From a bacterium (lineage in GTDB: Bacteria > Hinthialibacterota > Hinthialibacteria > Hinthialibacterales > Hinthialibacteraceae): DNA of 64,000 bases. Positions 16,892 through 58,080 of this stretch are shown one piece after another. The translations under genes were made by a program, and so were the position numbers. The stretch is from NCBI GenBank assembly GCA_963662285.2, contig CAXXMV010000003.1:320001-384000 (forward strand), written 5' to 3'. Every line of letters starts with the position of its first letter. The first letter of the stretch is position 1. The notes beneath the pieces were generated by a model. It did not search any database. It had not been told where the DNA came from and saw only the letters and a list, made by a program, of their open reading frames with translations.

Positions 16892-18034
16892 CTATTTGAT
16901 AGACCAATCATCAACAGCAGTTTGTAATGTGTTTATTACAAAAATGCTGTCGCTGGCATTGTGGGAACTGAAAAAGGCATAGGCCTGATCGTCAGTCACT
17001 TCAAAAGCGCGGCAGTGGCTGCTGAATGCATCGGTTCCAGTTATATCATTGAGGTCGCTATTGGTGATAAACGCTACGGGAACGCTATTGTTTTCAACTT
17101 GCAATCCATCTGATGAAAGTTTATATATTTTTAAACCAGCGATATTACCTAAAATATACAGATACGGTTCGCCAGAGGCTACGCCTGCGATTTTTACGCT
17201 TACTGCATCTGCATCTTCCGCTTCACCAGGCTCAAAGACCAAACTTACCAGTAATGTTTCTACGCCTGTTTCTGGATCAAGTACGTAAGCCGAAGAAGTC
17301 TTGGTCAATGTATCTCCTTCGCAGTAATAGATCAGGTCTTTGCCATCGATATATTTGACCTCGAAATTACGCAACCGGGCGAGTGAGGTAAAGAATGTTC
17401 CGCCATCCTGCCAATCCGTATCCAGTATAAAAGGCATTCCATCTTCGGCTAACGAAGCTGTAACTTTATAGCGGTGAATCTTCATGCGGTTTTCGCCGCC
17501 GGAATAATGATTGGTGTACAGATAGGTTCCATCATGATTGAAATTCAAGGTGTCACAGGCTGGGAGTACATCAGCTTCGAGCCAGCTGTCTGATTCGTTG
17601 CCAATATTGTAATCATCGGGATATCCGGTGAATGTGACTTCTTCTTGACCACCATTGCCGATGACCAGACGGGTTCCAAATTGCGAACTTCCCTTGGGTA
17701 ATCCATACATGTGATTGGTAGCCCAACGGTGCGCAACCTGATCTGCGTTATCGGCGTCTCGCAACTCTTGAACTACATATTGCGAGAAAAATGCATTAGC
17801 GTTGGAGTCTGATGTGTATAAATAAGTCTGGTCAGATGTTGAATCCGTTGTACTGGGTCCGCCGAAACTCCAGTAATGAGGTGAAGGACCATGGGTTTCC
17901 TCATCCATTACTTCCACATATTTCAGGTTTGGAGCATTCCACCAATATGACTTAGCTGCTCCATAGTTACAAATAAATCCAAGAAATAAAACACCCCATA
18001 AGCTGCGAAGAAAAATTGATTTGTTTAATGCCAT
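16892..18034 (-). CDS. Secreted beta-rich hypothetical protein with C-terminal TAVDDWSIK tail
   Basis: GGAG RBS, signal peptide, acidic beta-strand-rich sequence; no recognised family. Confidence 0.7.
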   Translation of the reverse strand: MALNKSIFLRSLWGVLFLGFICNYGAAKSYWWNAPNLKYVEVMDEETHGPSPHYWSFGGPSTTDSTSDQTYLYTSDSNANAFFSQYVVQELRDADNADQVAHRWATNHMYGLPKGSSQFGTRLVIGNGGQEEVTFTGYPDDYNIGNESDSWLEADVLPACDTLNFNHDGTYLYTNHYSGGENRMKIHRYKVTASLAEDGMPFILDTDWQDGGTFFTSLARLRNFEVKYIDGKDLIYYCEGDTLTKTSSAYVLDPETGVETLLVSLVFEPGEAEDADAVSVKIAGVASGEPYLYILGNIAGLKIYKLSSDGLQVENNSVPVAFITNSDLNDITGTDAFSSHCRAFEVTDDQAYAFFSSHNASDSIFVINTLQTAVDDWSIK

Positions 18035-18135
18035 TATCTTACTCCTGTTAATGATGTATTTGAATCATACGACAATATTATAATAAGATAACAAGTATTT
18101 TGTTACTAGGATTAGAAGGTCATAATCAGTATTAA

Positions 18136-19521
18136 TTAGTTCTTAATAGCTGTTGCAGCCTTCAATCTATTTACAATCGAAAAAGCGATAAAATTACTCG
18201 CCACACCCACGACCAGCCCATCAATTCCGGTGGAGGCGGAGAATAGTTTGTTCCATAGAATCATTCCAGTTATACCCGCCAGGGTTCCAGTTATAAAACC
18301 AAGTTTTGAAGTCCTGAAGCCAAGCAGCACAGCGGCCAGAGGGATCAATATGATAGGCGCCCAGAAGTTGTATGCATAAAGCAAAATATCAAGTACGCTC
18401 TCGATTGACACTGCGAAAATTATCGCTGATATTCCAACTAACATATTGGTTAGTTTGGCAAGGTTCAGTTCGGCTCTATCTGATAGTGGCTTGCGGCGCA
18501 ATGGTTTTACGATATCGTTGATTAATCCGGAAGACGCTCCATTCAAGAATGAGTCAGCCGAAGACATTACTATAGAGATCACACCTGCTATTACGATACC
18601 GCGTAATCCGATGGGAAGCGCATTTTGGATTAAATAGGGCATAGATAAATTTGGATCGAGTTCAGGATTTAAGGTCAGCGCCACGAGTCCGATCAGGCCG
18701 GTAATGGCGAAAAACGGGATGGAGAAGAGTCCGCTCAGCAGAGTCCCACGGGCGGTTTCGCGCGAATTTTTACCTATAAAGAGCCTTTGTACATATGGCG
18801 GCACTAATGTTTCACCTAAAACAAATGTCAGGAAGAGCGAGATAAGAGCGATCCAGGTCATGCTGTCGCCGGGAATCGATAAATGACCAGCGGGCGCTGA
18901 TTGAATAATCGCTTCGATTCCACCGGCCTGGCTGATTCCAAAGAATAAAGTTAGCGGGATGCCGATTCCCAGCACAAGAAATTGGATAACATCGGTCAAG
19001 ACAACAGCACGCATACCTCCAATGGTCGAGTAGGTAATAACGATGCCGCATCCAATCAGAATGCCCCAGATTTCGCTGATATTTAGAAAAACGTTGAAGA
19101 TTTTCCCCATTGCGCCGACTTGAGCGCCAACGATGCCAGCACAGAGGAAAACTGAAAATATTCCGGTTACGATCTTTCCAAATTTCCCATAGGCCGGTTC
19201 CATTATGTCTCCGGTAGAAATGAAACCGGGGAAATTCTTGGTTCTGGGAGCGATATATTTGGCGACCAGAATTTCCTTCAAACTGAATCCCCAAAGGGCG
19301 ACGATATTGACGATGCCAAAGCGGAAGACTTTTTCAGCATTGCCGATGGAGAAGCCTCCTCCAATAAACGAAGCCGAGAGCGTAGCGAATATTATCCATG
19401 AAGAATAGGATTGATGGGATACGGAGAAATCGCGTAAATTTTTTAAGCCTTTTCCACTATATATTCCAACACTGAGAATGAGAAGTAAATAAACGGCGAC
19501 GATGCCATGATCAATTTGCAT
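18136..19521 (-). CDS. Sodium:solute symporter family protein
   Basis: About 13 TM segments; YSTIGGMRAVVLTDVIQF, YVQRLF and MSSADSFL motifs. Confidence 0.93.
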   Translation of the reverse strand: MQIDHGIVAVYLLLILSVGIYSGKGLKNLRDFSVSHQSYSSWIIFATLSASFIGGGFSIGNAEKVFRFGIVNIVALWGFSLKEILVAKYIAPRTKNFPGFISTGDIMEPAYGKFGKIVTGIFSVFLCAGIVGAQVGAMGKIFNVFLNISEIWGILIGCGIVITYSTIGGMRAVVLTDVIQFLVLGIGIPLTLFFGISQAGGIEAIIQSAPAGHLSIPGDSMTWIALISLFLTFVLGETLVPPYVQRLFIGKNSRETARGTLLSGLFSIPFFAITGLIGLVALTLNPELDPNLSMPYLIQNALPIGLRGIVIAGVISIVMSSADSFLNGASSGLINDIVKPLRRKPLSDRAELNLAKLTNMLVGISAIIFAVSIESVLDILLYAYNFWAPIILIPLAAVLLGFRTSKLGFITGTLAGITGMILWNKLFSASTGIDGLVVGVASNFIAFSIVNRLKAATAIKN

Positions 19522-20066
19522 AGGTAATATTTCCTTTGGTTAAAGTCTTAAAAGTGTAACTGGAGGTGAATCAAGATCAAGTGTTGTCTTGGTTTGATGA
19601 GATTGTATAAAGTCTGATTGGGGATTTCGGGGGATTTGATATGTCGTGAATTATTATTTTTAATAAATTGATGAAGTTATAGATAAATTAAAATCTAAGC
19701 ATAATAATAAATTATTTTTTATTAAAAAATGTCAAATATTTTAATAAAAGTTTATTTTTAAAATAAATTCATATTATAAAAAAAATCTAATCTATTAAGG
19801 TCTAATATTATAAATTAATGGTTAAAAATGATATTATTTTTGGTAAAATACTTTATAGTCTGATCTATTTTTGTTTCAACTGAAAACGAGTTGTCAATAT
19901 TTAGGAATCAAGATATATTTAGACAAATATAGTTATCGTTAATTAAAATTAAATAAATATCTAAATTTACGTCAAGAACTAAATAATAAGTAGTTCTATA
20001 CATTCATGAGAGGAAATATTTAGTATGATGAAAAACAATAAAATATAGTTGTGGAGGTATTTTATT

Positions 20067-20789: not shown

Positions 20790-20818
20790 TTCGTATTAAT
20801 AATTATTGTTGTAAACGC

Positions 20819-21067: not shown

Positions 21068-21261
21068 TATTCCCTCCGCGAATATTTTTATCCAATGGCG
21101 AAAATATTTTCTCTTTTATAGAATATAGAGAAGTGTTTGAACATTTTTTGACAAAAAAAATGAACTTTTTTTATCTTTGCCATTGTAAACGTAAGAATAG
21201 ATAAAGTAATATTCATTGCTTATCAGGAATATTTTTTATCTTTTGTAGATGGAGAATACAC

Positions 21262-22209: not shown

Positions 22210-22259
22210 CTTCTCAAATTCTTGATTAACATATCCTCTTGATTTTTCGAGGCAGATGA

Positions 22260-23260: not shown

Positions 23261-25752
23261 TTAGAATAAAGACCATTCCTTAACAACTGTTCCTGTATCC
23301 TCGTAGTTGAACAATGCTTCTCCATTGAATTGATAGGAATATTTAGCGGTCATAGTCCAATACGGTCCGCTTGCTCTATCCACCAGTTTGTAAAAATCGG
23401 TATATCCATATATAGAGTCGCCGGACGAGTTGAATGTGTAGAATTGGTATGGCGCCAGTATGTGATCGACTAAACTGATCAGAATTTCTTTGCTGGTTGA
23501 ATCGGTTTGGGGATAATCTTCTTTTACGGAGATCATAGTGAGAAACCATGCGGCATCGTAGGCCATATAATCATAATCGGTTGGTTTGATGCCGATAAAA
23601 TCTTCCAAGACTTTTCGATAGGCTTTTTCAAACATACTAAATAAGTCCTGTGAAACGGTTCCAGGTGAAAAGGCGGTGAAATTGGTCTCTAGAGCGAAAG
23701 CAAAAGATGCTGGATCGTTGGCGATAGACGAGTTTTTGGCTAATCCATCTCCACCGAACCAACGGACGTCTCGCAATATTGAATCCTCAGGAATAGCGTT
23801 GAATAAGCCAACCGCTTCATCCAAAGATATAGCCAGGACTGCGGTTTTTTCTGTTCCTGAAATTGCTGCGGCGGATGTGATTCCATCTGTAATTAATCCG
23901 ATGGTCCCGGTGAAATCAGTAGTATCAACGCTATATGAAATGCCCTCGGCGCAGGTTCCACCGATTGCTTCGAATTTATCTTTGAAAAGCGAATATAAAT
24001 CGGCGCCATAATTATCATCGCGGTATACGGGTTGAACAAACTCAATCCCTAAATCTTGGAGATATACAGCTAAGGCATTAGCCAGTTTTTCGTTATCTAA
24101 AGCAAGACGGAATATGTTATCATCGACGGCCAGATCGAGCGATGTGCTGCTGGGTGAGATTAGGATTAGATCATTCTCGTTGGCGTAGGTTGCTACGGCG
24201 CTTAGTTCGCTGCTTTTCAATGGGCCGACGAACAATTCAACTCCCTGACTGTGCAATTCCTGGATTTTTTCCAGAGCAATTTGCGGATCAGAGGCCGTAT
24301 CTGCAACAACAATATCGATTGATGAATTCTCGGTGAAATTACGTTTTAGATAATGAGTTAAATCCGAAGACGCCATATCCAGAACTTTTTGAATTTCTAA
24401 ACCCATTGTGGAGTTATCGCCCGTTAAAGGCAGCAACGCTCCAATTTTTACCATGCGGTCGGTATACAATGGAGGATACTCATAATAGTTATACGTTTCG
24501 TATAAGTCCCCCAGTTCTGGTTGTGGCTTTTGATAGGAAGCAATCAGAGTCCATCATAATGGCCATTAGATTCCATGAAACTATGGAATGCTGTAACGCC
24601 ATTTGAACTATCTCCGTTAACATCGAAAACCAAAAAGTTGTTGACGCCAAATACTTCATAGGAGACTTTAATAAATTCTTCTTTGACATCAAAAACATCG
24701 GCCATCAAAGCGACGAAAGAAGCAATTTGGAAGGCATCATAAACAAAAGTAACAATATCTTCCTGTAATATTTCATCGGTCGATTTGTAGATTCGAGTCA
24801 AAAGGTTTTCGCATGTAGGAACGTGCGGATAAAAAGGATGGTATAAATCCTTAACAGAAGCAGCTGCAAAGGTGAAATTGGTTTGCAGCGCGAACGCTTT
24901 AACATCTTCGTCATTGGTGAAAGCAGAAATATGAGCGGCGTCATCATTATTAATCCACCGGGTTTGTTTAAGAGCGTCATGTTGGTAAGATAATTTGACA
25001 ATAGCCCCGATTTCATCATATGAGATGGAGATAACTGCTGTGCGGGATGAACTATCGGCGTTGATGCTCTCTTCAACAACCTGGTTGAGTTGTTGAACCG
25101 TGTCTGCAAAATCAGTTTGTTCGGGTGAATATTTAACTTCTCCGGCAATGGTTCCCCCTGCAGCAACCCATAAAGGCTTAAAAGCATTGGCGTATTCATT
25201 ACCATAGGTATCATCACGGAACAAAAGCGCTACGGATTTATGATCATGCCTTTGCAAGAATTCTGAGACCGCTGTGGCTTTTTCAATATCATTCATGTGC
25301 ATCCGGAAAATCATATCGTCAATGGCCAATGAAGGGGATGTACTGGTTGGCGATATGATCAAAATATGATTTTCATCAGCAAAAGGTTTGATTTTCTCTA
25401 CGCATGAACTTGAGAACGGGCCAATGATGACCTGAATGCCTTGATCATGCAATTGCTGGATCTTCTCCAGTGCCACATCTGGATTGGTCTCTGTATCTTC
25501 AGCGACCAATTGAATATTCATATCAGAAAATAAACGTTCTATGTCTGCTTCAGCAATATCTAAAACAGCCTGCGTTGTTTGGCCCATGACGGATAAACCG
25601 CCGGTAAAGGGCGCCAAAACTCCAATTTTAACAATTTCCTGGGCGAATAAATTCGGGGTGATCGTCACGAGAAGCAACATGATTATGCCAAACAAAAAAA
25701 ACGATTTAATTTTTGTTTGACATTTGTTTGAGTGCAATAGTTTGTTATGCAT
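23261..25752 (-). pseudogene. Frameshifted paralog of the double type I periplasmic-binding-fold protein (ORFs 24544-25752 and 23261-24469)
   Basis: Both halves align with 25937-28459; one missing base near 24553 splits the frame. Confidence 0.85.
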
Positions 25753-25936: not shown

Positions 25937-28459
25937 TTAATATAAAGACCATTCCGCAACAGCTGTTCCTGGTGCAGGATCGAAATTATATAATTTCTCT
26001 CCATTGAACTGATAGGAATATTTGGCGGTTGTACTCCAATAGGCGCCGTTAGTTCCATCCTTCAACCGATAAAAGTCAGTGTATCCATATTGTGAATCAC
26101 CGAACGAGTTGAATGTATAGAATTGAAACGGACCTTGTGCATGGTTGACCAGGTCAAATAGTAATTCACTTTGGGAAGCGCCAGTTTGGTCGTAATCTTC
26201 TTTGACAGTTAGCATCGTCAGGAACCATGCTGCATCATAAGCCATATAATCATAAGCGGCTGGTTTGCTTCCGATGAAATCACGTAATACATTACGCCAT
26301 GATCTTTCAAACATCCCGAAAATATCGTATGAGGTGTTTCCCGGTGAGAATGCCGTGAAATGTGTTTTGAGCGCGAAACTGTAGGCTGAAGGATCGTTGG
26401 CTATTGATGCATTTTCAGATAGGCCATCACCACCGAACCAGCGTACTTCACGCAATATCGAATCCTCTGGTATTGTGTTGAATAAATTTACCGCTTCATC
26501 TAAAGCAATGACTAATACAGCAGTGTTTGTTGTTTCATGAATTGCTGCTGCCGATGCAATACCATCTTTAAGAAAATCAACGGTTTCACTAAAATCAGAG
26601 GTATCAATGCTGTATGAGACGCCTTCAGCGCAGATTCCGCCGACGGCCTCGAACTTTTCCTTAAATACCGTATAGAAATCAGCGCCGTAAATATCATCGC
26701 GGTAAACCGTCTGGACGAACTCAATGCCGATATCCTTGAGATACGCAGCCAGGGCATTGGCCATTTTTCCATTATCCAAGGCAAGACGGAAGATATTATC
26801 ATCGAGAGCCAGATCAAGAGACGTGCTGCTGGGAGAGAGCAGGGTAAGTCCATTGTCATTGGCATAGGTTGCTACAGAACTTAACTCACTGCTGGTTAGA
26901 GGGCCGATGAAAAGTTCCACTCCCTGACTGTGCAGTTCCTGAATTTTTTCTAATGCAACTTGTGGATCAGAGGCCGTATCAACCGACACTATCTCAATGG
27001 ATGAATTTTCTGTAAATTGTCTTTTCAGATATTTCGTTAAATCTGAACCGGCCATCTCCAAGGTTTTTTGCATCTGCAATCCCATAGAAGCATTATCACC
27101 GGTTATCGACAAGAGCGCGCCGATTTTTACGGAGCGATCTGTAAAGATGGGAGGATATTCGCTATAGTTATAAGGTATATACAATTCATAGGGCGGTTGG
27201 GGCGTTCGGTAGGTTGCGACCAATCCCCATCCTGCTTGACCATCAGAGACCATGAAACGATGGAATCCGGTTGTACCATTACTGCGGTCTCCGTTTTCAT
27301 CAAAAATTAAAAAACTGCTGATTCCAAAAAGTTCTTGAGAAAGTTCAATAAAACTTTCTTTTGTATCAATGAAATCGACCAGCAAAGCGGCAAAGCAACC
27401 TACCTGGAAGGAATCGTAAACATAAAAAATGATATCTTCCTGAAGTTTTTCATTGGTCGATTCATATATTTGCGTCAGGAGGTTTTCACATTTTGGAACA
27501 TGTAGATAATAGGGGTGGTACAGTTCCTGGACGGCAACTGAGGCAAAGGTGAATTCAGTTTGCAGGGCGAAATTTTTCACATCTGCGTCATTCAAGAACG
27601 CATCAATGTGGGAAGCGGATTCATTTTCAATCCATTTCACTTGCGAAAGCGCCTCATGTTGTGAAGCCGCTTTGGCGATGTCGCCGATCTCTTCGTATGA
27701 AATAGACAGGACGACAGTTTGTGATGCGCTATTTGCATCGATGTTATCTTGCACTATTTGGTTGAGTTGTTGGACAGTTTCAGTAAAATCAGTTTGATCC
27801 GTTGAATATTTAACCTCATCAATAACCGTTCCGCCCAATTCAATCCACAAAGGCTTGAAGGTATTAGCGTATTCATTGCCATAAGTATCATCACGGTATA
27901 GCAGCGCAACGGATTGATAATCTTGTTGCTGTATGAATTCAGCAACAGCAGCGGCTTTGTTGTTATCATTCGGGTGCATCCGGAAAATCATATCATCCTC
28001 AGCCAGGGAAGGGGCTGTGCTGGTCGGAGATATGATCAAAATGTGGTTTTCATCAGCAAAAGGTTTAATCTTCTCGACGCATGAACTGGAGAACGGTCCA
28101 ATGATTACCTTTATGCCTTGATCATATAATATTTTAATTTTTTCCAATGCGACATCGGGATTAGTCTCCGTATCTTCGACGACAATTTCGAATTCTATGT
28201 CGTTAAATAATTTCTCTACATTTGATTTAGCAGTTTCAAGCGCAGCCTGGGCAGTTTTCCCCATAATAGATAGACCGCCGCTAAATGGGATCAAGGCGCC
28301 AACTTTAACAATTTCTTGGGCGAACGAATTTGGAGTGAGCGTACCTTGAAGCAAAATAATCATCCCAAACACCAACAGCGATTTCATTCCACGTTGTATG
28401 ATTCGATTTTGTGATAAACCAGAATACAAAAAAATCATCTTCTTATTAATTCCTCTCAT
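25937..28459 (-). CDS. Secreted protein with two tandem LivJ/ANF-receptor-like substrate-binding domains and TAVAEWSLY tail
   Basis: Signal peptide ending SFA-QE; VKVGALIPFSG..IIGPFSS..ISPTSTAP occurs again as VKIGALLSITG..FIGPLTS..LSPSSTS. Confidence 0.88.
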   Translation of the reverse strand: MRGINKKMIFLYSGLSQNRIIQRGMKSLLVFGMIILLQGTLTPNSFAQEIVKVGALIPFSGGLSIMGKTAQAALETAKSNVEKLFNDIEFEIVVEDTETNPDVALEKIKILYDQGIKVIIGPFSSSCVEKIKPFADENHILIISPTSTAPSLAEDDMIFRMHPNDNNKAAAVAEFIQQQDYQSVALLYRDDTYGNEYANTFKPLWIELGGTVIDEVKYSTDQTDFTETVQQLNQIVQDNIDANSASQTVVLSISYEEIGDIAKAASQHEALSQVKWIENESASHIDAFLNDADVKNFALQTEFTFASVAVQELYHPYYLHVPKCENLLTQIYESTNEKLQEDIIFYVYDSFQVGCFAALLVDFIDTKESFIELSQELFGISSFLIFDENGDRSNGTTGFHRFMVSDGQAGWGLVATYRTPQPPYELYIPYNYSEYPPIFTDRSVKIGALLSITGDNASMGLQMQKTLEMAGSDLTKYLKRQFTENSSIEIVSVDTASDPQVALEKIQELHSQGVELFIGPLTSSELSSVATYANDNGLTLLSPSSTSLDLALDDNIFRLALDNGKMANALAAYLKDIGIEFVQTVYRDDIYGADFYTVFKEKFEAVGGICAEGVSYSIDTSDFSETVDFLKDGIASAAAIHETTNTAVLVIALDEAVNLFNTIPEDSILREVRWFGGDGLSENASIANDPSAYSFALKTHFTAFSPGNTSYDIFGMFERSWRNVLRDFIGSKPAAYDYMAYDAAWFLTMLTVKEDYDQTGASQSELLFDLVNHAQGPFQFYTFNSFGDSQYGYTDFYRLKDGTNGAYWSTTAKYSYQFNGEKLYNFDPAPGTAVAEWSLY

Positions 28460-28704: not shown

Positions 28705-30897
28705 TTAGAACAAACTCCAATCCTGCACAGCAGTTCCGCCATCGAGTAAATTCAAAATAGTCCAACCCGATTCGTTGTTGTATGGTTCAAAGACATTTCC
28801 GTTTGCTTCGCTGGAGTGCCATCCCCATTTTCCAGTGCGCACGCCGGGATTGTCGGCATCGCTGCTGTTCATCATGATGTCGAATCCGATCTGTGTGCGG
28901 GAAGCCGGATCAAGAATTGCGTCTTTAATCACGCGGTATTCAACTACGAAGCCTGAATTGTCATCTTTGACTTTAGCGCCGACAGCCCAATAGATAATTA
29001 GGTCTTCTCCGTCGCGGCCATTTTCCATATACTTACCACCGCCTGGAGCATCAAGCATTTCCGGGAAATACTTGTTGTTGGATGCGGCAATCCTACCGTC
29101 GCCCACAACCGTCAGCTGGCATCCTAAATTATTGCTTTCGATGGAAGCACTGCGTGATAGATTTCCATCAAAGTATAATTCCGTGCTATCAGCGTTCCAG
29201 AAGCTTGCATCGGGATATTCAAAACTGAGGTTTGGATCGGTAACGTCGAGACTTACGTACAAATAATCCGTATCGTGAAATACGTAGAAGGAGACGTTTT
29301 CTTCATCAGCGGGATACTCAACGCCGGAAATATGAACGCCCGGCGCGGTATTACCATCAGAAGTGTCGTGATTGAATGAATAGACATTGGCGTCTTGGTA
29401 TTCACCATCACTGATGATGCCGTCCAGGGTTACTGTGTTGGAAAGGAATGGAGCTTCCACCATCGTATCTTTGACATATTGGCTGAAATATAGAGGCGTA
29501 TTTACACCAAAAATGGATTCGCCGTCCACTGTTCCAGACCAGACCGGAGCTAGAGTAATCTCGCTAGGAGAAACAGCATTATAGGTCAAGTTTACAGCCG
29601 CATCAGAAGCGACTTCAACTTCCCAGGAAATTACGCCATCAGCAACTGTTCCGCCATTACTGATATCAGATGCCGACCAGCCTTCAGGTAGGGTTTCCAG
29701 TACGGTTACGGTATCGGTTTCACCTTTCATGGTTAATGAAAGTTCAATGCCTAAAGTCGCTGAATCTCCTTGATAAATGGTAGCGTCATCGGAAAAGGAT
29801 CTCACTGCCAGACAGAAAGAAGAGACCAAACCGAAACGGATGTTATCAATCAAAAGATTTTGACCATCCGCGGTATTGGCGTCGCTGCCCTGATCATGAT
29901 GAAAACCAATAGCGAAATCGCCGCCTTCAATGATTGAATTCATGTGCGGCCCCAAATCCAAAGAGAAACCAAGAGGTCTCCAATTGGCTTGGTTGCCGCT
30001 GATGCCTCTAAATTCCACAGGAACGCTTGTTCCTCCTGAGGTGGAGACCAAGTAGGGGCGTATTACGCACCAGGTAGAGAAATCTGAGGTCACGCAGGCA
30101 TCAAAATAGATAGCGCGAACTCTGGACCAATCTACGTCTTCTTTGGTGTTGATAGTCTTGGCGGAGCGCATGTTACCCTGAGTAATTGAAATCAACATGC
30201 AGTTGTCGCCTTCAGACGGCGTGACGAAATCAGCGCCCAATACGGGAGGTAGTGCAGCCTGATCTTTCATCCAACCCAGAGGAGCGTCATCACCGGGATT
30301 GGTTTCGTTTAAGCCGTAAACCGGGATAATTTCCAATTCGATAGGATTAAGTGGACGAACGGCATAGATGTTGTCCAGGTAAAAACGTCCTGTTCCAATC
30401 GTTCCGGCGCTGATGACCATATTGATTCTATTGAAGTCAGCCATCTCGTTTGATGAGCGGTAAGGATCAATAGGCATAACGACTTCATACCATTCACCCG
30501 GGGTAATGTAATCGAAGGACAGGCAATCATCCGGCGGCAAATGTATACGCATGGGAACATGTCCGTTACCATCGGTTGCACTGTCATCCAGAAAATACAT
30601 AGAGAAACGTAGTTCTGTGACGCCAGTCAAATCATGAGACTCAGGCAATGTGATATTGGCCTGTGACCATGAATTGCTGCTGGTGCAATCATACTCTACG
30701 TATACCGCCCAGGGACTATCGATCTCTGGTACATTCTCTGCTGCTACTTCGTCGATCATAGAGAACGTAACTGAACCACCAGCCATCGCTACATCAGATA
30801 ATTCAAAACTGTCAACAAATACGTTTTCGGTCTGGGCAAAGCCCTGACTCACAATCAGTGATACAAATAGTACGCACATCGCAAATCTTTTTGTCAT
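28705..30897 (-). CDS. Secreted multi-domain carbohydrate-binding-like protein (C-terminal CBM9/DOMON-like) with TAVQDWSLF tail
   Basis: GGAGG RBS, signal peptide; two jelly-roll-like units ending FYLDNI and LIDNIRF; TLDG..DYLYVSLDVTD..DSTELYFDG..IGFDIMMN CBM9-like pattern. Confidence 0.7.
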   Translation of the reverse strand: MTKRFAMCVLFVSLIVSQGFAQTENVFVDSFELSDVAMAGGSVTFSMIDEVAAENVPEIDSPWAVYVEYDCTSSNSWSQANITLPESHDLTGVTELRFSMYFLDDSATDGNGHVPMRIHLPPDDCLSFDYITPGEWYEVVMPIDPYRSSNEMADFNRINMVISAGTIGTGRFYLDNIYAVRPLNPIELEIIPVYGLNETNPGDDAPLGWMKDQAALPPVLGADFVTPSEGDNCMLISITQGNMRSAKTINTKEDVDWSRVRAIYFDACVTSDFSTWCVIRPYLVSTSGGTSVPVEFRGISGNQANWRPLGFSLDLGPHMNSIIEGGDFAIGFHHDQGSDANTADGQNLLIDNIRFGLVSSFCLAVRSFSDDATIYQGDSATLGIELSLTMKGETDTVTVLETLPEGWSASDISNGGTVADGVISWEVEVASDAAVNLTYNAVSPSEITLAPVWSGTVDGESIFGVNTPLYFSQYVKDTMVEAPFLSNTVTLDGIISDGEYQDANVYSFNHDTSDGNTAPGVHISGVEYPADEENVSFYVFHDTDYLYVSLDVTDPNLSFEYPDASFWNADSTELYFDGNLSRSASIESNNLGCQLTVVGDGRIAASNNKYFPEMLDAPGGGKYMENGRDGEDLIIYWAVGAKVKDDNSGFVVEYRVIKDAILDPASRTQIGFDIMMNSSDADNPGVRTGKWGWHSSEANGNVFEPYNNESGWTILNLLDGGTAVQDWSLF

Positions 30898-36577: not shown

Positions 36578-36996
36578 TCAGTTTCCTTATATATAGCGGT
36601 TAACAAAAATATATTCATTTATTATCACGTTTGGTCTTAGAAGACGCCAATTTTTGATGGCATTTTCTAAGTTATAGTAAAGTATGCACTAGACCAATTA
36701 AAGGATCATATGTCTCGAGATAGTAACACCATTAATAGACATGGGAAAATAATTTTTCATAAAAAAACCGTTAGAACATTTTCTTTCTAAGACACAATCA
36801 TTTTGCAATAGGCTTATTTATTTGATAATTTTTTATAAAATAATGAGACATCATGAGTTGTTTGAGATATATTTTATAAAAAAGTATGCTGTTTTTATTT
36901 GTTTTGAGCAATAAGAGCATGATTGATTAAAATGAGTTATTGCCATATAGTTATCGAAAAATCATAAACTTTACAAACCAGCGGGGGGATCATCAA

Positions 36997-39882
36997 ATGG
37001 GTCGGTCATTATGGTTGTTGGCGATTATTGGTTGTGCGCTTTGGGTTAACGGGATTGCTTCTTGCGAAGAAATTGTACAAAATCCTCAACATTCGTTGAT
37101 GGTTAATAGTGAAACGTCTATTGAGACTCCAACGGTCACGCCTCTATCTACCATTACGCCTATTCCTTCTCCAACGCCTACTGAAACTCAGGTGGATTAT
37201 GTAAACAAATTCCCCGTATGTGGGGATGTTCCTGGAAATATACACGACCTGGATTTCATTCCTGAAAGTAACCGGATTATAACGCTGGATGAAGTAAACA
37301 ACTTACGTTTTTGGGAAAAAAATCCAGTTAGCCTGCTTTTGCAGCCAAACGTGGAAATTGGTGATGTAACAAAAATTGAACTGACCTGTAATGGAAAGTT
37401 TGTTTGGGTAAGTGGATGTATTGAGTTGAATTTAATAATAATAAAAGTAGATGCAATCACAGGGTTAATTATCAAGGAAATTGAAATTGGCGAAAATATT
37501 ACTACATGGGATATTGATAATGATGAAAAACATCTATTTTACGCAAAACCAAATAAAGGCATTTTTGAAATTGATTTGGAAACGGATCAGCGTAAGCAGA
37601 TATACCAATTATCTGAAGGTTTTGATTATCTTTATAATTTAATACTCTCTCCTGATAATAGTGAATTAGCCATTGTTGAATGGACTAATAGTTATGACCA
37701 GATATATGAATCCAGAGTAGTGATCTGGGATATTACTCAGAATCAGACGAAGCGTGAGTTTCATTACCATAAATACTATGTAGATAAAGTGCTGTGGACT
37801 CAAGATGGAGATTACTTATATTTTCAGACTATTGATAGAACTGATGGCTCATATCGTTCATATAGTATGGAATTGTTCGAGAAATCGACTGGTCATCATA
37901 TTGGACATCTTTACCTAGGTGATAAAAAAGGTGAAGTGGAATTAGCTCCCGATGGAGTTCGTCTTTTATTTTCGGAATGGAATAAAAAAGGCGTTGTCGC
38001 CTTGGTGGATTTTTTCTCTGGTGAAATATTACATAAGTTCCATCATCAGGGTCATGTATATTCAATGGCATTTAACCAGGATGGAACAGAAATCCTAACA
38101 GGAACCTATTCCTCGTCAAAAGAGATAGCCGCTGCATATTTATGGGATATCTGCGACATCCCGGCAGGGGAATTTCCAGATTCGTTTGTTGCGTCGACCC
38201 CCACTCCGACAATGACTATTACTCCTACAATGACTTTCACGCCTACGCGAACACCGGATCGACCACATAGTTATCCCACAGAGTATCAGTTGATGGAGAC
38301 CGACCTGAAAGCAGATCTTCTGGCGATTAATCCCGTGACTGATGATATTGTAAGTACTTATTTCGAGACTTATCCCCGCAGATTTTTTATTACTACGCCG
38401 TCGGGCGATAAAACCGAAATCACTCCAGATTCTGAAGAAGCCCAGCAGATTTTGAGTCAATCCTTTAACGATATGTGCGTATCAGAACAAGGCGTCATTT
38501 ATTTTATAGGTGACGAATTAGTGGAATTTGATCCCAACCGGATTTATAATCCCGTGCGGCAATTTGATATCAGCGGTCGTAAAATACATGTTGTTGCTGA
38601 AACAGATAGAATCCCCGGAGCAACGCCTGGGATGTTGATAATCCTCCGCACGCCAGATAATAAAAATGAAAGGGATGAATTCTTCTATTTGGGCCATAAA
38701 GAAAATGAACTGCTTCTGTTTAATCCACAGAGCGATCCTGCTACGCGTGAGATTCTTTTTACCGGGGAAGAATTTCTAAGAGGCGTTATTATAGCGGATA
38801 TGACTATTGGCCCCGAAAATCGGTTGTTCTTTATAACCAGTGGATACATAAACAAAATCATATTCCTTAATGATAAAGGATGCATTGAAGAATATTCTCA
38901 TTTATTATTTGATTTTGGATATTTATTCTCCAATTCACATTTCTATTCATTCATTTACAGCCCGATAGAACGTTCTTTCTTTTTGCAAACATATTGTATA
39001 TTTAAGATACCTATTGATGATTTATCTGAAATAAAATTTGCTTCAACGTCATATTCATCAAAAGGAATATTAGAATCATCAATATCAGGTGATAAGATTT
39101 TCGTTTCTCATCGAAAACGATTTCCTTTTGAAGATTCAATTTATGTATTAACTACTGAAACGGCGCCTGCAACTCCCACGCCTCCAGCCATAATCCCGAA
39201 ACCCACGCCAACGCCGATCAAGGCATGGTTTGTGCTTGATGGATTTGGCGGGATTCATACCACTAATGATGACGTGAAGCCTCCCGTATTACCCTATTTC
39301 ATGAATTACAACATAGTCAGAGATATCGAACCCGATCCTCAAGGCAAGGGCTGGTACATGCTGGATGGTTTTGGAGGCATACATCAATCATCAACAGAGA
39401 TGCAGAGACCTCCTATTGAAATGCCCTATTTCGGATTTGATATTGCGCGGAATCTGGAAGTTAAATTTACTGATGGCGAGTATAAGTTCTATATGCTGGA
39501 TGGCTATGGCGGAATTCACACCAACGATGAGGACTTTAAGTTTATCAATTTACCCTGGAATGATCGTGATGTAATGCGTGATCTTGAACCGGTGGATGAT
39601 AGCAATGATTGGATGGTTATGGACGATAGAGGATTAATTTATCGTAATGATACTCCTCAGATAGATCGTATTTATTACTGTTTCTTTTCAAGTAAAATCA
39701 TGAGAAGTTTCGTCCGGTTCCCGGATGATCGAACCGTCATGATCGATTTCTATGGCGGGCGGCATACCAATAGTTATTATCCGGCCAACGATGTAATCAA
39801 CGGTTTACCACCGGGATTCTATTTCCCAGGTTGGGAGATTATCTGGGATGTTGAGATTGTTCCCGAAAATATGATTGAATGA
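36997..39882 (+). CDS. Exported WD40/beta-propeller protein with PT linkers and C-terminal LDGFGGIH-repeat domain
   Basis: ATG 36997 after GGGGGA gives a signal peptide; WD40-like blades (LSPDNSELA..IWDI, AFNQDGTEILTG..LWDI). Confidence 0.8.
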   Translation: MGRSLWLLAIIGCALWVNGIASCEEIVQNPQHSLMVNSETSIETPTVTPLSTITPIPSPTPTETQVDYVNKFPVCGDVPGNIHDLDFIPESNRIITLDEVNNLRFWEKNPVSLLLQPNVEIGDVTKIELTCNGKFVWVSGCIELNLIIIKVDAITGLIIKEIEIGENITTWDIDNDEKHLFYAKPNKGIFEIDLETDQRKQIYQLSEGFDYLYNLILSPDNSELAIVEWTNSYDQIYESRVVIWDITQNQTKREFHYHKYYVDKVLWTQDGDYLYFQTIDRTDGSYRSYSMELFEKSTGHHIGHLYLGDKKGEVELAPDGVRLLFSEWNKKGVVALVDFFSGEILHKFHHQGHVYSMAFNQDGTEILTGTYSSSKEIAAAYLWDICDIPAGEFPDSFVASTPTPTMTITPTMTFTPTRTPDRPHSYPTEYQLMETDLKADLLAINPVTDDIVSTYFETYPRRFFITTPSGDKTEITPDSEEAQQILSQSFNDMCVSEQGVIYFIGDELVEFDPNRIYNPVRQFDISGRKIHVVAETDRIPGATPGMLIILRTPDNKNERDEFFYLGHKENELLLFNPQSDPATREILFTGEEFLRGVIIADMTIGPENRLFFITSGYINKIIFLNDKGCIEEYSHLLFDFGYLFSNSHFYSFIYSPIERSFFLQTYCIFKIPIDDLSEIKFASTSYSSKGILESSISGDKIFVSHRKRFPFEDSIYVLTTETAPATPTPPAIIPKPTPTPIKAWFVLDGFGGIHTTNDDVKPPVLPYFMNYNIVRDIEPDPQGKGWYMLDGFGGIHQSSTEMQRPPIEMPYFGFDIARNLEVKFTDGEYKFYMLDGYGGIHTNDEDFKFINLPWNDRDVMRDLEPVDDSNDWMVMDDRGLIYRNDTPQIDRIYYCFFSSKIMRSFVRFPDDRTVMIDFYGGRHTNSYYPANDVINGLPPGFYFPGWEIIWDVEIVPENMIE

Positions 39883-39953
39883 TCAGGGCGTATTTATATA
39901 TTAATCTTTTTAACGATAATTTATCTTATTTTAAACTATGGAGGGATCATCAA

Positions 39954-41801
39954 GTGAGCAGTACATTATGGTTGTTAGCGATTATTGGGTATGTGGTTTT
40001 ATCTTATGGGATTGGGTTTTGCGGAAAAATTACAAAACAATCTCAATATTCTTTAATTTCAGTAGATATTTATAATAACGTAACTGGCGCAAGGCAAGGC
40101 CGTAATTTGTATCATGCCAATAGTGAGACTCCAACTGAGACTCCAACCATGACGCCTACGCCGGATCAACCCAATGGCTTTCCTGCAGATTACCAGCTGG
40201 TAAAGAGCTACCTGAAAGCTGATCTTCTGGCCATTAATCCCAGAACGGATGATATTATCAGTACTTATTACGATAACTACTCCCGCAAACTGAACATCAC
40301 AATTCCGTCAGGAGATCAAATCGGAATCACACCTGATTCCGAACAAGCGCAGCAGATTTTGAATCAATCCTTTGGGGATATGTGCGTATCAGAAGAAGGC
40401 GTCATTTATCTTATTGGCGGGAAATTAGTGGAATATGATCCAAACCGCATTGATAGTCCCGTGCGGCAGTTTGATATTAGCGGTCGCAAAATTCATGTTG
40501 TTTCTGAAACGGATAGAATCCCCGGAACTAAACCCGGGATGTTAATAATTCTGAGTACTCCAAATAATCCTAGCGACGATGATGTGTGGTATATGAATGG
40601 CCGCAAGAATAATAAACTAGTTATGTTTAATCCACTTTCTGATCCCGTTGAAACCGAGATTCTTTTCGCTGGTGAAGAATTTTTGAGGGGTGTTAGCATA
40701 AACGATATGACTGTAGGTCCCGAAAATCGGTTGTTCTTTATAACCAGAGGTTACAAGAGCAAACTTTTATTCCTTAACGATGAAGGATATATAGAAGAAT
40801 ATGCCCATTTCTTGTATGATTTTGGATATCCTACTTTCCTTTCTCTTACATACAGCCCAATAGAGCGTTCTTTCTTTATATTATCTAATCATAAATTATT
40901 TAAAATATTTTCTGATGATTTATCTATTTCAGAATTCGCTTCATTAAGCCTATCATCCTTTATGTTCTCTTCTGTAAATGCAGTTTTGCAATCATCAAAA
41001 ACAGGTGATAAGATATTTTTTCCTCATGGGGAAAAAATAAATGAACAATGGATTTTTACATTAAATACTGATAAAACTCTTCCAACACCAACCCCTACGC
41101 CTCCAGCCATTATCCCGACTCCCACACCAACGCCGATCAAGGCCTGGTACGTGCTGGATGGATTTGGCGGGATTCATACTACTAATGCTGATGTGAAGCC
41201 TCCCGTGCTACCTTATTTCATGGATTACAACATAGTCAGAGATATCGAACCCGATCCTCAAGGCAAAGGCTGGTATATGCTTGATGGATATGGCGGTATT
41301 CATCAATCTTCTGCCGAGATGCAGAGACCTCCTATTGAAATGCCATATTTTGGATTTGATATTGCCCGGAATCTGGAAGTGAAATTTACCGATGGTGAGT
41401 ATAAGTTCTATATGCTGGATGGCTATGGCGGAATTCACACCAACGATGAGGACTTTAAGTTTATCAATTTACCCTGGAATAATGACGATGTGATGCGTGA
41501 TCTTGAACCAATTGAAGATAGCGACGATTGGTTGGCGCTGGATGATAGAGGATTCATTTATCGTAATAATATTCCGCAGATAGATAGTATCTTTAATATG
41601 TATTATGCAAATAAAATTATAAGAAGTTTCGTCCGGTTCCCGGATGATCGAACCGTCATGATTGATGTTTTCGGCGGACGTCATAGCAACATTTATTATC
41701 CAGCCAACGATGTTATCAACGGTTTGCCGGAGGGATTCTATTTCCCCGGTTGGGAGATTATCTGGGATGTTGAGATTGTTCCCGAAAATATGATTGAATG
41801 A
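39954..41801 (+). CDS. Paralog of the previous gene lacking the WD40 region
   Basis: GGAGG RBS before GTG 39954 with the same gggatcatcaa context; shares the middle and C-terminal domains. Confidence 0.8.
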   Translation: MSSTLWLLAIIGYVVLSYGIGFCGKITKQSQYSLISVDIYNNVTGARQGRNLYHANSETPTETPTMTPTPDQPNGFPADYQLVKSYLKADLLAINPRTDDIISTYYDNYSRKLNITIPSGDQIGITPDSEQAQQILNQSFGDMCVSEEGVIYLIGGKLVEYDPNRIDSPVRQFDISGRKIHVVSETDRIPGTKPGMLIILSTPNNPSDDDVWYMNGRKNNKLVMFNPLSDPVETEILFAGEEFLRGVSINDMTVGPENRLFFITRGYKSKLLFLNDEGYIEEYAHFLYDFGYPTFLSLTYSPIERSFFILSNHKLFKIFSDDLSISEFASLSLSSFMFSSVNAVLQSSKTGDKIFFPHGEKINEQWIFTLNTDKTLPTPTPTPPAIIPTPTPTPIKAWYVLDGFGGIHTTNADVKPPVLPYFMDYNIVRDIEPDPQGKGWYMLDGYGGIHQSSAEMQRPPIEMPYFGFDIARNLEVKFTDGEYKFYMLDGYGGIHTNDEDFKFINLPWNNDDVMRDLEPIEDSDDWLALDDRGFIYRNNIPQIDSIFNMYYANKIIRSFVRFPDDRTVMIDVFGGRHSNIYYPANDVINGLPEGFYFPGWEIIWDVEIVPENMIE

Positions 41802-52843: not shown

Positions 52844-52928
52844 AATATTTACCTCATCTATATTTGTAACAGTTAAGCCGTACAAAGCCACGATATGGCG
52901 CTTCAATTGGCAATACTATTACTTTTAT

Positions 52929-54074: not shown

Positions 54075-54229
54075 TTGATATCCTTAATAATTTCTGAGAT
54101 ATTGAGATTATCTCAGAAAATGATGTTATAGGTCAATGGATAGAGATGAAGAGAACTATACGAAATCTATTACATCTGATTTAATTACATAAGCAGCGCA
54201 AACTAAAACATGAGGCTAACAGATATTTT

Positions 54230-55816: not shown

Positions 55817-55873
55817 TTCTTTCCTTCTCCCGGGGTCTGTACACATTGTTGTGTGATAGTGGGTAGTGGATAG

Positions 55874-56238
55874 TGGGGAGCATCGGCTTCTAGCCGGTGT
55901 GTCAATCCCTTTTTAACCGGAGTGGTTATATTGACGAATAACTTTTCAAGCGCTTGGGTTATGCATCCCTCTCCCAAGATTGGGAGAGGCTAGGTGAGGG
56001 TTGATAATAGGCGCTCTCGCAAATAAATCTCCATTATAGTTATTTCACTTTCCTGGTGATTTGGAGAAATTAATAAGATAAACTTTTCTGACTTATCGAA
56101 TGATATCCAAGGTTTGGAATTACTAATGTCGTCAGGAGGATATTGTATGTGAGGAAGGATTCTACGAGACATTCGGAATTGGTTAGGCTGGTTTATAGGT
56201 TTATTTGACGCACACCGGCTGGAAGCCGATGCTCCCCA
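55874..56238. mobile_element. REP-flanked relic, probably a deleted RAYT (IS200-like) element
   Basis: About 32-bp inverted ends tggggagcatcggcttc(t/c)agccggtgtg; minus-strand fragments SRRILPHIQ and TPVKKGL inside. Confidence 0.5.
55966..56004. repeat. REP-like element
   Basis: tccctctcccaagattgggagaggctaggtgagggttga, near-identical to 5715-5754. Confidence 0.8.
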
Positions 56239-56383
56239 GTCTATGATGCTCCCCAGTCTATGATATTACCCGTTTCATTCTCATCTCCTGATCTTTGTAT
56301 GGAGATTAGCCCGGCGGGATAGGGAACTTAGTTGACCGAAATTTATGGTTGGTAAGAGGACTAATGATATAAAGGAACTGATA

Positions 56384-57259
56384 ATGACAAACTGTGATAT
56401 TTTAGTAATAGGACATGTATCCAAGGATATAATTATTACCCCGACGGATGAGGCGTCCCTGCTGGGCGGCGCGGTTATCTACGCCGCTATCAACTTACAA
56501 AAACTAGGCGCCAAGGTTATTGCGCTGACCAAAGTTAATAACAGCGAAACTCATTTATTGGATGTTTTCAAGCAGCATGGAGTCCCTATCCATTGCAGCG
56601 ATACAGCCCAGACTACCTCGATACGCAATACCTACCACACCGCTGACCGCGAAAGAAGAACCTGTCAGGCCATAGCCGTAGGCGATCCTTTCACCCTGCA
56701 AGACATCCCTGCTGACATTGAACCGGATTGCTTTTACTTCGGCGGCCTCATCAAAGGCGAGTTCAGCGAAGAATTGGTGATTGCCTTGTCGAAGAAAGGT
56801 AAGACGGCGGTCGACGCTCAAGCCTGGCTGCGAGCCAATGATAACGGCGAGTTGGTCTTTACCGATTGGGATAAAAAGCGCGAAACCATTCCCCATTGCC
56901 ACTATTTCAAGACCGACGCAGCAGAGGCTGAAATCATAACCGGCATCAGCGATAGGGTGGCAGCTGCCAAAAAGATCAATGAATGGGGCGCCAGGGAAGT
57001 TATGCTAACCCATAACAGCGAGGTCATGATCTGCGCTGAAGGCAAAATCATCACATATCCATTCACCAGCCAAAAATTGGATGGCCGCACCGGACGGGGC
57101 GATACATGCTTCTCCACCTATTGCTATTGGCGTATGAAACACTCACCGGAAGAATCATGCTTATGGGCGGCGGCTCTAACCTCACTTAAGATGGAGACTC
57201 CAGGGCCGTTCACCGGATCGATTGAAGATGTGCAGAATATTATTAAAGAACGATATTAG
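56384..57259 (+). CDS. PfkB family carbohydrate kinase
   Basis: IGHVSKD, LGGAVIYA, VDAQ, GRTGRGDT; AAGGA RBS before ATG 56384. Confidence 0.88.
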   Translation: MTNCDILVIGHVSKDIIITPTDEASLLGGAVIYAAINLQKLGAKVIALTKVNNSETHLLDVFKQHGVPIHCSDTAQTTSIRNTYHTADRERRTCQAIAVGDPFTLQDIPADIEPDCFYFGGLIKGEFSEELVIALSKKGKTAVDAQAWLRANDNGELVFTDWDKKRETIPHCHYFKTDAAEAEIITGISDRVAAAKKINEWGAREVMLTHNSEVMICAEGKIITYPFTSQKLDGRTGRGDTCFSTYCYWRMKHSPEESCLWAAALTSLKMETPGPFTGSIEDVQNIIKERY

Positions 57260-57291
57260 ACTAAACAATCCTGTTGAGGAGGAAATGAGTT

Positions 57292-58080
57292 ATGCGCGTA
57301 CACCGACGTTCTTTTTTTCAATTAGCAAGTTTGGGCGCCTTATCTTCTGTAGTTCCTAAAACGTCACATTCCGGAGTGGGCGCAACTGCAATAGCAGATA
57401 AGACATCCTATATGAGGCGCGTTACATCCGCGCTTAAACAACAATGGCCCAATAACCGTCTGATCAATATTGTATGTCATGGACATAGCGTGCCCGCCGG
57501 ATTTTTCAAGACTCCGGTGGTTGACACTTTCAACGCCTATCCCCATCTGCTGCACCGCGCAATTAAGAACGTCTATCCCTATTGCGTCAGTAATGTGATT
57601 GTCACCGCAATCGGCGGCGAGAATTCACAGAGCGGTGCGTCACGATTCGAAAGCCAGGTGTTATGCCACCTTCCTGATGTGGTTACTATCGATTACGCAT
57701 TGAATGACCGGGGCATAGGTCTTGCAGCAGCCAGAACAGCATGGGTATCCATGATAGAGAAGGCGAAAACCGTCAGAGGATTAAGCGTCATTCTTCTAAC
57801 GCCCACGCCTGACGAAGCGCATATCCCCGATGATCCCAACGAACCCATAAATCAACATGCCGCGCAAATCCGCTCATTGGCCGAAGAATTTGAAGTGGGA
57901 TTAGTGGATAGCCTAGCTGGATTTGATCTGATCCAAAAAGAGACGGGCGATGTAACGGCTCTGCTTTCGCAGATTAATCACCCCAACCGTAAGGGACATG
58001 ATATTGTAGCCAAGGAATTATTCAGCTGGTTTTCTGATGAACCTTATCAAGCAGCGATTGATGATTGGGATGTTCATTAA
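57292..58080 (+). CDS. Tat-exported SGNH/GDSL hydrolase with AAIDDWDVH tail
   Basis: HRRSFF Tat motif; GHSV, AIGGENS, YALND and NHPN..GH blocks. Confidence 0.88.
   Translation: MRVHRRSFFQLASLGALSSVVPKTSHSGVGATAIADKTSYMRRVTSALKQQWPNNRLINIVCHGHSVPAGFFKTPVVDTFNAYPHLLHRAIKNVYPYCVSNVIVTAIGGENSQSGASRFESQVLCHLPDVVTIDYALNDRGIGLAAARTAWVSMIEKAKTVRGLSVILLTPTPDEAHIPDDPNEPINQHAAQIRSLAEEFEVGLVDSLAGFDLIQKETGDVTALLSQINHPNRKGHDIVAKELFSWFSDEPYQAAIDDWDVH

Follow-up and report, generated by a model that had tools for sequence, protein, structure and literature searches.

Five proteins encoded in a 64,000-nucleotide stretch of a genome from the bacterial phylum Hinthialibacterota (the window; C3:320001-384000 of the 7.29-Mb, 8-contig genome G000) end in the same nine-residue tail, with tryptophan fourth from the C-terminus, and we find this tail on 159 of the 5148 open reading frames (ORFs) that we defined in the genome. 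The tail has a defined motif and a strict C-terminal register, is restricted to proteins with export-signal-like N-termini, behaves as a module on unrelated folds, is conserved within families, is predicted to be disordered and is spread over two candidate phyla. From these sequence patterns we think it probable, with moderate confidence, that the tail serves as an address or docking tag that is short, linear, C-terminal and specific to its lineage; that a receptor in the cell envelope reads it, where it does so and with what outcome are matters that we infer. Many copies on unrelated exported proteins, a fixed position at the end, invariant residues, lineage restriction and modular gain together match the profile of a protein-sorting tag. 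An earlier note on the window's DNA had suggested a short address read after export, and of that suggestion the C-terminal tag on exported proteins holds across the proteome, whereas the partners proposed for it do not. The window was translated as its 34 longest non-overlapping ORFs, among which the tails and the genes that carry them are the following.

16892..16921, minus strand: tail TAVDDWSIK with its stop codon (translation; also a carrier by the position-specific scoring matrix, PSSM, described below).
16892..18034, minus strand: carrier 1, a 380-residue exported seven-bladed beta-propeller without a Pfam or NCBIfam family.
23261..23290, minus strand: tail TVVKEWSLF with its stop codon (translation; PSSM score 22.1).
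23261..24469, minus strand: carrier 2, the apparent C-terminal half of a split double binding protein, with Peripla_BP_6 (Pfam) and without a signal peptide of its own.
24544..25752, minus strand: the apparent N-terminal half of the same split gene, with a signal peptide and Peripla_BP_6 (Pfam) and without a tail.
25937..25966, minus strand: tail TAVAEWSLY with its stop codon (translation and regular expression; matched at G000:C3:345937-345960 by the DNA pattern described below).
25937..28459, minus strand: carrier 3, an 840-residue exported protein with two Peripla_BP_6/ANF_receptor domains (Pfam, two stretches).
28705..28734, minus strand: tail TAVQDWSLF with its stop codon (translation).
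28705..30897, minus strand: carrier 4, a 730-residue exported CBM9-domain protein in which Pfam CBM9_1 ends at residue 717.
58051..58080, plus strand: degenerate tail AAIDDWDVH with its stop codon (translation; PSSM score 14.6).
57292..58080, plus strand: carrier 5, a 262-residue SGNH/GDSL esterase with a Tat-type RRSFF signal, in which Pfam Lipase_GDSL_2 ends at residue 238.

Translation returned all five C-termini exactly as the earlier note had written them, and the tail is exclusive to these five within the window, the other 29 translated ORFs ending otherwise. The four unrelated types of carrier that had been claimed are borne out as a seven-bladed beta-propeller (AlphaFold2, AF2, with Foldseek) and, by Pfam, as Peripla_BP_6, CBM9 and SGNH/GDSL proteins. 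The claim that all five carry an export signal stands for the SGNH esterase, with its Tat-type RRSFF, and falls for ORF 23261-24469, which has none of its own. This ORF is 71% identical to residues 438-840 of the 840-residue carrier 3 beside it, and ORF 24544-25752 is 64% identical to residues 11-408, with a stop at its end and the other half in a different frame; judging by these identities, the two adjacent 402-residue ORFs (23261-25752, minus strand) are a split or frameshifted paralogue of the double binding protein, either a pseudogene or an assembly frameshift. One half of this split copy bears the signal peptide and the other half bears the tail. A paralogue of carrier 3 with like architecture and a tail lies elsewhere in the genome (L132). 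The fifth tail, AAIDDWDVH, had been described as weaker, and it is a degenerate variant within its family that keeps W at -4 and V/I at -7 and does not keep L/I at -2.

To describe the tail on the scale of the genome, genes were taken as ORFs by rule, with no gene caller: 8171 six-frame ORFs of at least 100 residues, reduced to 5148 by greedy removal of overlaps. The regular expression proposed in the earlier note matches 81 of the 8171, and in the last 12 residues of the 5148 the strongest positional enrichment is that of Trp at -4 (245 ORFs, 3.1 times background). An iterated 10-residue PSSM with a cut-off score of at least 12 converges on 137 ORFs with exact ends. None of 25,740 random internal windows reaches even a score of 8, and among all 2,063,981 internal windows scanned exhaustively 36 score at least 12, 22 of them one or two residues from an end and 14 truly internal. 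The 137 exact ends, 21 ends with one extra residue and 1 with two make up the 159 carriers, so the tail is not limited to the few genes in which it was noticed.

The aligned ends give the logo P(-10) T(-9) x V/I(-7) x D/N/E(-5) W(-4) S/M/E(-3) L/I(-2) Y/F/H(-1), that is, an optional Pro followed by T-x-V-x-[D/N/E]-W-x-[L/I]-[Y/F/H], placed at the C-terminus or one residue before it. Position -1 is Y, F or H in 149 of the 159 carriers, and the residues added beyond it in 22 carriers are mostly D, E, N or Q. Upstream of the tail each position holds only 0.1-0.3 bits, and the information is confined to the last 10 residues. A relaxed core, [TSAV]-x-[VI]-x-x-W, is followed by three residues in 139 ORFs and by four in 34, and at each of the other offsets between 0 and 11 it occurs in 1-6 ORFs, against an expectation of 2.0 per offset; this concentration argues that the distance from the Trp to the free C-terminus is under constraint. 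One 803-residue ORF (G000:C2:537179-539590, minus strand) holds a perfect motif, ...VPVNDWSIH, at residue 664 with 139 residues beyond, and may represent read-through or fusion behind a former C-terminus. When we looked for other recurrent C-terminal motifs in G000, we found only an R-x-P-W end, in 27 ORFs with R at -6 and W at -3 (R-x-P-W-x-x), of which the examples seen are Tat-signal proteins that make up one cluster of paralogous neighbours; this end is family-specific and no general tag.

Most carriers share an export-signal-like beginning. Our strict heuristic for exported, non-membrane proteins accepts 117 of the 159 carriers and 902 of 4881 other ORFs, and a lenient signal-peptide heuristic accepts 152 of the 159 and 2268 of 4989 others, so that by the enrichment among signal-peptide-like proteins that the earlier note had put forward as a check the tail is not equally frequent elsewhere. 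A Tat-like RR motif is present in six carriers and a lipobox-like motif in three, and a transmembrane-like segment after residue 70 is seen in 6 of the 159. Once their tails are removed, single-linkage BLAST clustering sorts the carriers into 77 clusters, 57 with a single member and the largest with 53. We compared a random 40 of the 154 carriers outside the window with Pfam (E <= 1e-6): 23 have no family, and the remaining 17 are three peptidases (C1, S9 and S15), four proteins with CotH/LTD, three with CBM9, two with FG-GAP, and single examples of BNR, Kelch, DUF1349 and beta-helix proteins together with a second double binding protein. No glycoside hydrolase family was matched in this sample of 40.

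On these varied proteins the tail stands apart from the folded domain. Pfam domains of the window carriers stop 13-24 residues ahead of the stop codon, and in carrier 4 the end of CBM9_1 at residue 717 of 730 places both a linker and the tail outside the domain. The AF2 model of carrier 1 (mean predicted local distance difference test score, pLDDT, 83.4) has WD40 and G-beta propellers as its nearest solved folds in Foldseek (template-modelling score ~0.45-0.5), and its tail, residues 371-380, follows a confident last strand at pLDDT <50 without secondary structure.

Within families the tail is kept as the rest of the protein diverges. Among database homologues of the CBM9 carrier, 27 of 29 keep it, with identity to the query region falling to 32%. 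Over 20 aligned homologues of the propeller, W377 is invariant and V374 at least 90% conserved, and the last three residues are mostly polar, as in WLQK, WKQE and WENQ. The seven closest homologues of the SGNH esterase have an extension of 15-18 residues in which V/I at -7 and W at -4 are retained (one of them ends a residue later) and L/I at -2 is not; the other homologues inspected among the 120 listed end at ...WFP or a few residues beyond, and a few have unrelated extensions. The comparisons within the SGNH, CBM9 and propeller families together indicate that the tail is an add-on, made of a T-x-V-x-D-W core and an end piece of a fixed three or four residues.

The tail also marks a lineage. 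We searched genomes with a 24-base degenerate DNA pattern encoding V-x-[D/E/N/K]-W-x-[L/I/M/F/V]-Y-stop and used the reversed pattern as a control. In G000 there are 42 matches and none for the control, and across the phylum Hinthialibacterota 34 of 35 genomes match, with 2-42 matches each and 0-2 for the controls. The sole genome of the phylum without a match (G028; 65.6% GC, 84% complete) has one tail-like end, ...TSEVASWRLY (G028:C1:192096-192599), among 302 ORFs in 388 kb, which makes it tail-poor and not tail-free, and we dropped it as a tail-free control within the phylum. Homologues of the window proteins are labelled by NCBI as, for example, 'Candidatus Hinthialibacter sp.' or 'Candidatus Omnitrophica'. 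A stricter 30-base pattern, run over all species genomes, found at least 80 loci; among the matches listed, most are in metagenome-assembled genomes (MAGs) titled Candidatus Sumerlaeota, Candidatus Omnitrophota, Candidatus Hinthialibacteria OLB16 or 'uncultured bacterium', and the other genomes have single matches at chance level.

In the second phylum, that of a MAG titled Candidatus Sumerlaeota (G041), 36 of 75 genomes have at least three matches to the 24-base pattern (up to 30), with 0-2 for the controls; nine others have two, five have a single match and in 25 there is none. Over 400 kb of G041 scanned at the level of ORFs, the tail is found on 8 of 313, with signal-peptide-like starts, at 58% GC as against 37-49% in the window, on contigs that were picked because they hold pattern matches, so that this density does not extend to the whole genome. 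A MAG titled UBP4 UBA6127 (G120, locus L022) has six pattern matches and one control match, and the tail may thus reach a third candidate phylum. By these pattern counts, and with phyla named from record titles, the tail is a lineage trait common to two candidate phyla, Hinthialibacterota and part of Sumerlaeota.

How might such a tail work? We propose that, after Sec or Tat export, it would be the flexible end of folded proteins that are otherwise unrelated, set off from them by a short linker, and that an envelope receptor would bind it. The receptor would recognise Val(-7) and Trp(-4) at their set spacing from the free C-terminus, probably by taking up the tail as an added beta-strand, and binding would route the carrier across the outer membrane or hold it at the outer membrane or cell surface. 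If the tail is laid out as a strand, T, V and Y fall on one putative face and W and L on the other, with the Trp fixed three residues from the end; conserved residues on both faces, together with the fixed Trp, favour the addition of a strand into a receptor groove that senses the C-terminus. We infer outer-membrane translocation or docking as the role of the tail, and our data do not tell secretion apart from retention at the surface. More tentatively, the tail could be the address of a new route for folded Sec- or Tat-exported proteins, with a receptor whose Trp pocket sits at a fixed distance from the carboxylate, a proposal that we regard as possible and would not yet favour.

Several observations weigh against an address read in the envelope. 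Signal peptides were called by our own strict and lenient heuristics and not by SignalP. The propeller and SGNH families keep T-x-V-x-D-W as their last three residues drift to polar ones, which argues that a hydrophobic end is not universally needed. Exported proteins of the window that match GH106, GH78 and RGL11 have no tail, so the tail is not a general exit signal for exported proteins. The binding-protein folds of some carriers could act in the periplasm, which docking would fit better than secretion. Finally, among six candidate readers that we profiled (the PorV-like barrel, PorU-like C25 peptidases, a CPBP/Rce1-type protease, a TPR-secretin, cohesin proteins and pseudopilins), none tracks the tail.

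The first of these candidates, the barrel encoded at 10152-11306, had been proposed in the earlier note as a partner. It scores 60.4 bits (E 2.2e-16) with the PorV/PorQ family model NF033709, whose cut-off is 90, and its distribution speaks against it as a reader: a protein query finds it in families f1, f4 and f5 and gave no match in G021, which is tail-rich, 95% complete and from the same order, nor in any of 39 second-phylum genomes, and the PorV_fam hidden Markov model matched none of the 75 second-phylum genomes while matching the Bacteroides positive control. The genome encodes two PorU-like proteins, which score 232 and 193 bits where the cut-off is 420; such C25 peptidases occur in 72 of the 75 second-phylum genomes regardless of the tail and are uninformative as readers. 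A CPBP/Rce1 protease (3347-4300) was considered because W-x-x-x-COOH recalls the CAAX box (a 'W-A-A-X box'), and was set aside, being present in f1, f3 and f6 and not found in f4, f5 or the second phylum. A TPR-secretin (C8:420422-423595), considered as a reader of C-termini, has homologues in 44 of the 47 genomes of a panel, tail-free genomes among them, and does not discriminate. Cohesin domains (PF00963) are found in 34 of 36 second-phylum genomes with at least three pattern matches and in 17 of 30 with at most one, a weak trend confounded by kinship, for which we rejected these proteins as readers; they occur in the 958-residue protein at 7247-10123, upstream of the barrel, and also beside the secretin operon on C8.

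Two systems were also considered for relatives that lack the tail. Exosortase, as a complementary system, is present in the second phylum in one tail-free group of seven genomes (G058-G064) and weakly in two tail-rich genomes, which makes no clean complement, and the type A C-terminal domain (CTD) of the type IX secretion system (T9SS), as an alternative signal, is matched in 10 of the 75 genomes of that phylum and never more than once in any of them. Two loci of G000, window 7247-11306 (plus strand) and G000:C8:1024798-1028449, place a PorV/PorQ-like barrel after a large exported protein (958 residues, and 770 at the second site). One of these large proteins ends ...TGSLFESG and two nearby giants end ...PGSLFNGE, and such ends may form a second, smaller class of C-terminal motif tied to the barrels.

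Of the other explanations, the one that survives best would be a specific version of the envelope address, in which the tail is an export signal for an endopilus machinery resembling a type II secretion system (T2SS) or the type IV pilus, bound by a pseudopilin and pushed with its carrier through a secretin. G000 is rich in the parts, with 108 pseudopilin-like genes, 8 secretin genes and three T2SS-like operons. The pseudopilin-like genes (for example at window 62403-62927, plus strand) have G-F-T-L-I-E-L-L N-termini and a median length of 207 residues, and often lie beside genes for exported proteins. A pseudopilin gene adjoins 22 of the 159 carriers, as against 5.7 +/- 2.4 for gene sets drawn at random (2000 draws, at most 15 in any), and of the 23 carrier-pseudopilin pairs 20 share a strand, with gaps of -4 to 809 nt, all but one of them at most 300 nt. 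Set against other exported proteins, however, the enrichment is only about twofold (13.8% of carriers against 57 of 902, or 6.3%; odds ratio 2.4, p = 0.003), and 137 of the 159 carriers have no adjacent pseudopilin; in G041 one of eight carriers has such a neighbour. Nor do the numbers of these genes follow the tail: across 75 second-phylum genomes the counts of the pseudopilin pattern (10-131 per genome) are unrelated to it, tail-free genomes having 42-131, and the TPR-secretin is widespread irrespective of it. Pfam found no PDZ-type GspC among 23 proteins scanned from the three T2SS-like operons. A complex prediction for the soluble part of a pseudopilin with the last 35 residues of a translationally coupled carrier scored 0.00 and speaks neither for nor against.

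There is a precedent for such a signal in TcpF of Vibrio cholerae, a Sec-exported folded protein whose disordered terminal peptide serves as its export signal and is bound by the minor pilin TcpB (PMC10120004). The likeness lies in the short disordered terminal peptide, alongside the mild enrichment of pseudopilin genes beside tail carriers. The TcpF signal differs in being N-terminal, in serving one cargo and in being experimentally proven, while the tail lies at the C-terminus of about 160 cargoes and is known here from sequence. We therefore consider pseudopilin machinery, the other partner named in the earlier note, to be weakly linked to the tail, given the adjacency figures and the gene numbers that do not track it, and the endopilus explanation to be unlikely.

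A second alternative takes the tail as a recognition motif for a periplasmic PDZ-type protease or sensor (Prc/CtpA, or DegS/DegP-like), which would make it a degron, a site of maturation or a stress signal. The hydrophobic or aromatic end of the tail is similar to the Y-x-F ends by which DegS is activated and, generally, to PDZ ligands. The strictly C-terminal register is what this explanation would lead one to expect, and most tails do end hydrophobic or aromatic (L/I at -2, Y/F/H at -1). A PDZ ligand needs a free hydrophobic end, and by that measure 137 of the 159 carriers end directly at -1, while 22 run one residue (21 carriers) or two (one carrier) past the aromatic end and two whole families keep T-x-V-x-D-W in front of polar residues such as WKQE and WENQ; the polar ends and the 22 extended carriers together argue against a classical PDZ reading. 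Moreover, the Y-x-F ends of this organism's own barrels stand in another register, and a degron kept by purifying selection on unrelated proteins that make up 3% of the proteome has no obvious rationale. We regard a PDZ-type signal as improbable.

That comparison extends to the beta-signal of outer-membrane proteins (OMPs), or C-terminal Y-x-F, a short motif that closes the C-terminus with an aromatic residue and is read in the periplasm by the beta-barrel assembly machinery (BAM) and sensed by DegS. The tail is likewise short, linear and extreme C-terminal, with an aromatic last residue. In contrast, the barrels of G000 end ...GIGYQF (the OMP-like protein of the window) and ...MTYAF, hydrophobic at -1, -3 and -5, whereas the tail is conserved at -1, -2, -4, -7 and -9 (W at -4, L/I at -2, V at -7), and the tail's carriers are soluble folds (propeller, CBM9, binding-protein and SGNH) and not barrels.

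A third alternative needs no reader at all: the tail could be the carrier's own element, such as its last beta-strand, an oligomerisation strand or a peptide that binds glycans or the envelope. Peptides containing Trp and Tyr can bind sugars and membrane interfaces, and many carriers are themselves binding modules (CBM9, LamG-like and binding-protein folds). This explanation nevertheless has to place one peptide behind at least 77 unrelated sequence clusters, outside the ends of the Pfam domains and, in the AF2 model, disordered behind a complete propeller, and a sugar-binding peptide would not require a fixed distance to the C-terminus; we consider it very unlikely.

The remaining alternative, a minimal type IX-like signal with the PorV-like barrel 10152-11306 as its reader and PorU-like C25 peptidases as its processing enzymes, can draw on the PorV/PorQ-family match and the two PorU-like proteins of the genome and is hardly credible, given a tail of 9-10 residues in place of a folded domain of ~70-80, no match in G000 to SprA (TIGR04189) or the type A CTD (TIGR04183), for both of which the control genomes were also silent, a barrel that is missing from the tail-rich G021 and from the second-phylum genomes searched, and PorU-like proteins that are distributed regardless of the tail. 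The T9SS CTD is a folded domain of about 70-80 residues. Its type A form (TIGR04183/PF18962) resembles the tail in lying at the C-terminus of Sec-exported proteins of many folds, and G000 shares with T9SS the PorV/PorQ-like barrel and PorU-like peptidases; apart from the unmatched TIGR04183 and TIGR04189, the difference is that the PorV family is missing from tail-rich genomes. None of 15 C-terminal 60-mers matched a T9SS CTD family.

To our knowledge, every C-terminal sorting signal described in bacteria is either a folded domain, as in the T9SS CTD, or a tripartite tag that is anchored in the membrane and cut by a sortase-like enzyme, and the way in which folded periplasmic proteins are chosen for passage across, or attachment to, the outer membrane is poorly defined, notably in type II secretion. 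A full-text literature search, with subscription journals and supplements outside it, returned no published description of such a tail. The tail is also not covered by an existing CTERM family: no NCBIfam sorting model matched two full-length carriers or the 15 C-terminal 60-mers, whose lone NCBIfam match, to a leader-peptide model (E = 0.03), is noise. By a search for terms, 'C-terminal', 'sorting' and 'T9SS' do not occur in the paper describing Hinthialibacterota (PMC9324843).

Like the tripartite tags (LPXTG/sortase, PEP-CTERM/exosortase, GlyGly-CTERM/rhombosortase and MYXO-CTERM/myxosortase), the tail occurs in many copies, is C-terminal, has few near-invariant residues, sits on carriers with signal peptides and is lineage-restricted. 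Many copies, C-terminal place, signature residues, signal peptides and lineage restriction appear as criteria 1, 2, 3 and 6 in a preprint, where a membrane helix and a basic cluster define all tripartite signals (bioRxiv 10.1101/2023.06.07.544157). The tail differs in both defining parts, since no carrier of the 159 has a transmembrane helix (15-residue window of mean Kyte-Doolittle hydropathy at least 1.8 in the last 45 residues) and none has two or more R/K in the last five residues, and its whole signal is just 9-10 residues without a matching sorting model. The earlier note's argument that the tail fits neither the tags with a transmembrane helix nor the T9SS CTD is therefore upheld, the helix being absent and the information spanning 10 residues. 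As for a cognate sorting enzyme, exosortase (PF09721) had no match in G000 and the CPBP protease did not track the tail, with sortase and rhombosortase not searched for.

A parallel in manner of working lies outside bacteria. The peroxisomal targeting signal PTS1 is a C-terminal tripeptide read by the TPR domain of PEX5. We mean this as an analogy of working only, to a very short signal on unrelated folded proteins that depends on a free C-terminus; PTS1 is eukaryotic, serves another compartment and has no likeness to the tail in sequence, and the TPR-secretin here does not track the tail.

Other features of the window deserve record. The stretch 31051-58080 resembles a rhamnogalacturonan-type utilisation locus, with two GH106-like proteins, one GH78 rhamnosidase, an RGL11 lyase, a DUF4838 protein and the SGNH esterase, whose degenerate tail is the sole tail in the locus. 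At 36940-41801 (plus strand), two adjacent exported proteins of 980 and 640 residues share an identical 22-residue C-terminus, GFYFPGWEIIWDVEIVPENMIE; the longer has WD40-like repeats, and the pair, whose stop and start overlap, are recent paralogues. At 59461-62001 (minus strand), an 846-residue fusion of an N6-adenine methyltransferase and a BsuBI/PstI-type restriction endonuclease forms a single-chain restriction-modification enzyme.

If the tail is indeed an address or docking tag read in the envelope, about 3% of the proteome of this bacterium would be sent to the outer membrane or the cell surface with neither a membrane anchor nor a folded sorting domain nor a known sortase. A nine-residue tag of this kind would also offer a simple, transplantable and easily mutated handle on the selection of folded periplasmic proteins. 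In two uncultured, polysaccharide-degrading phyla, we anticipate that the tail would provide a prediction of the surface or secreted proteome that requires no more than a genome sequence.

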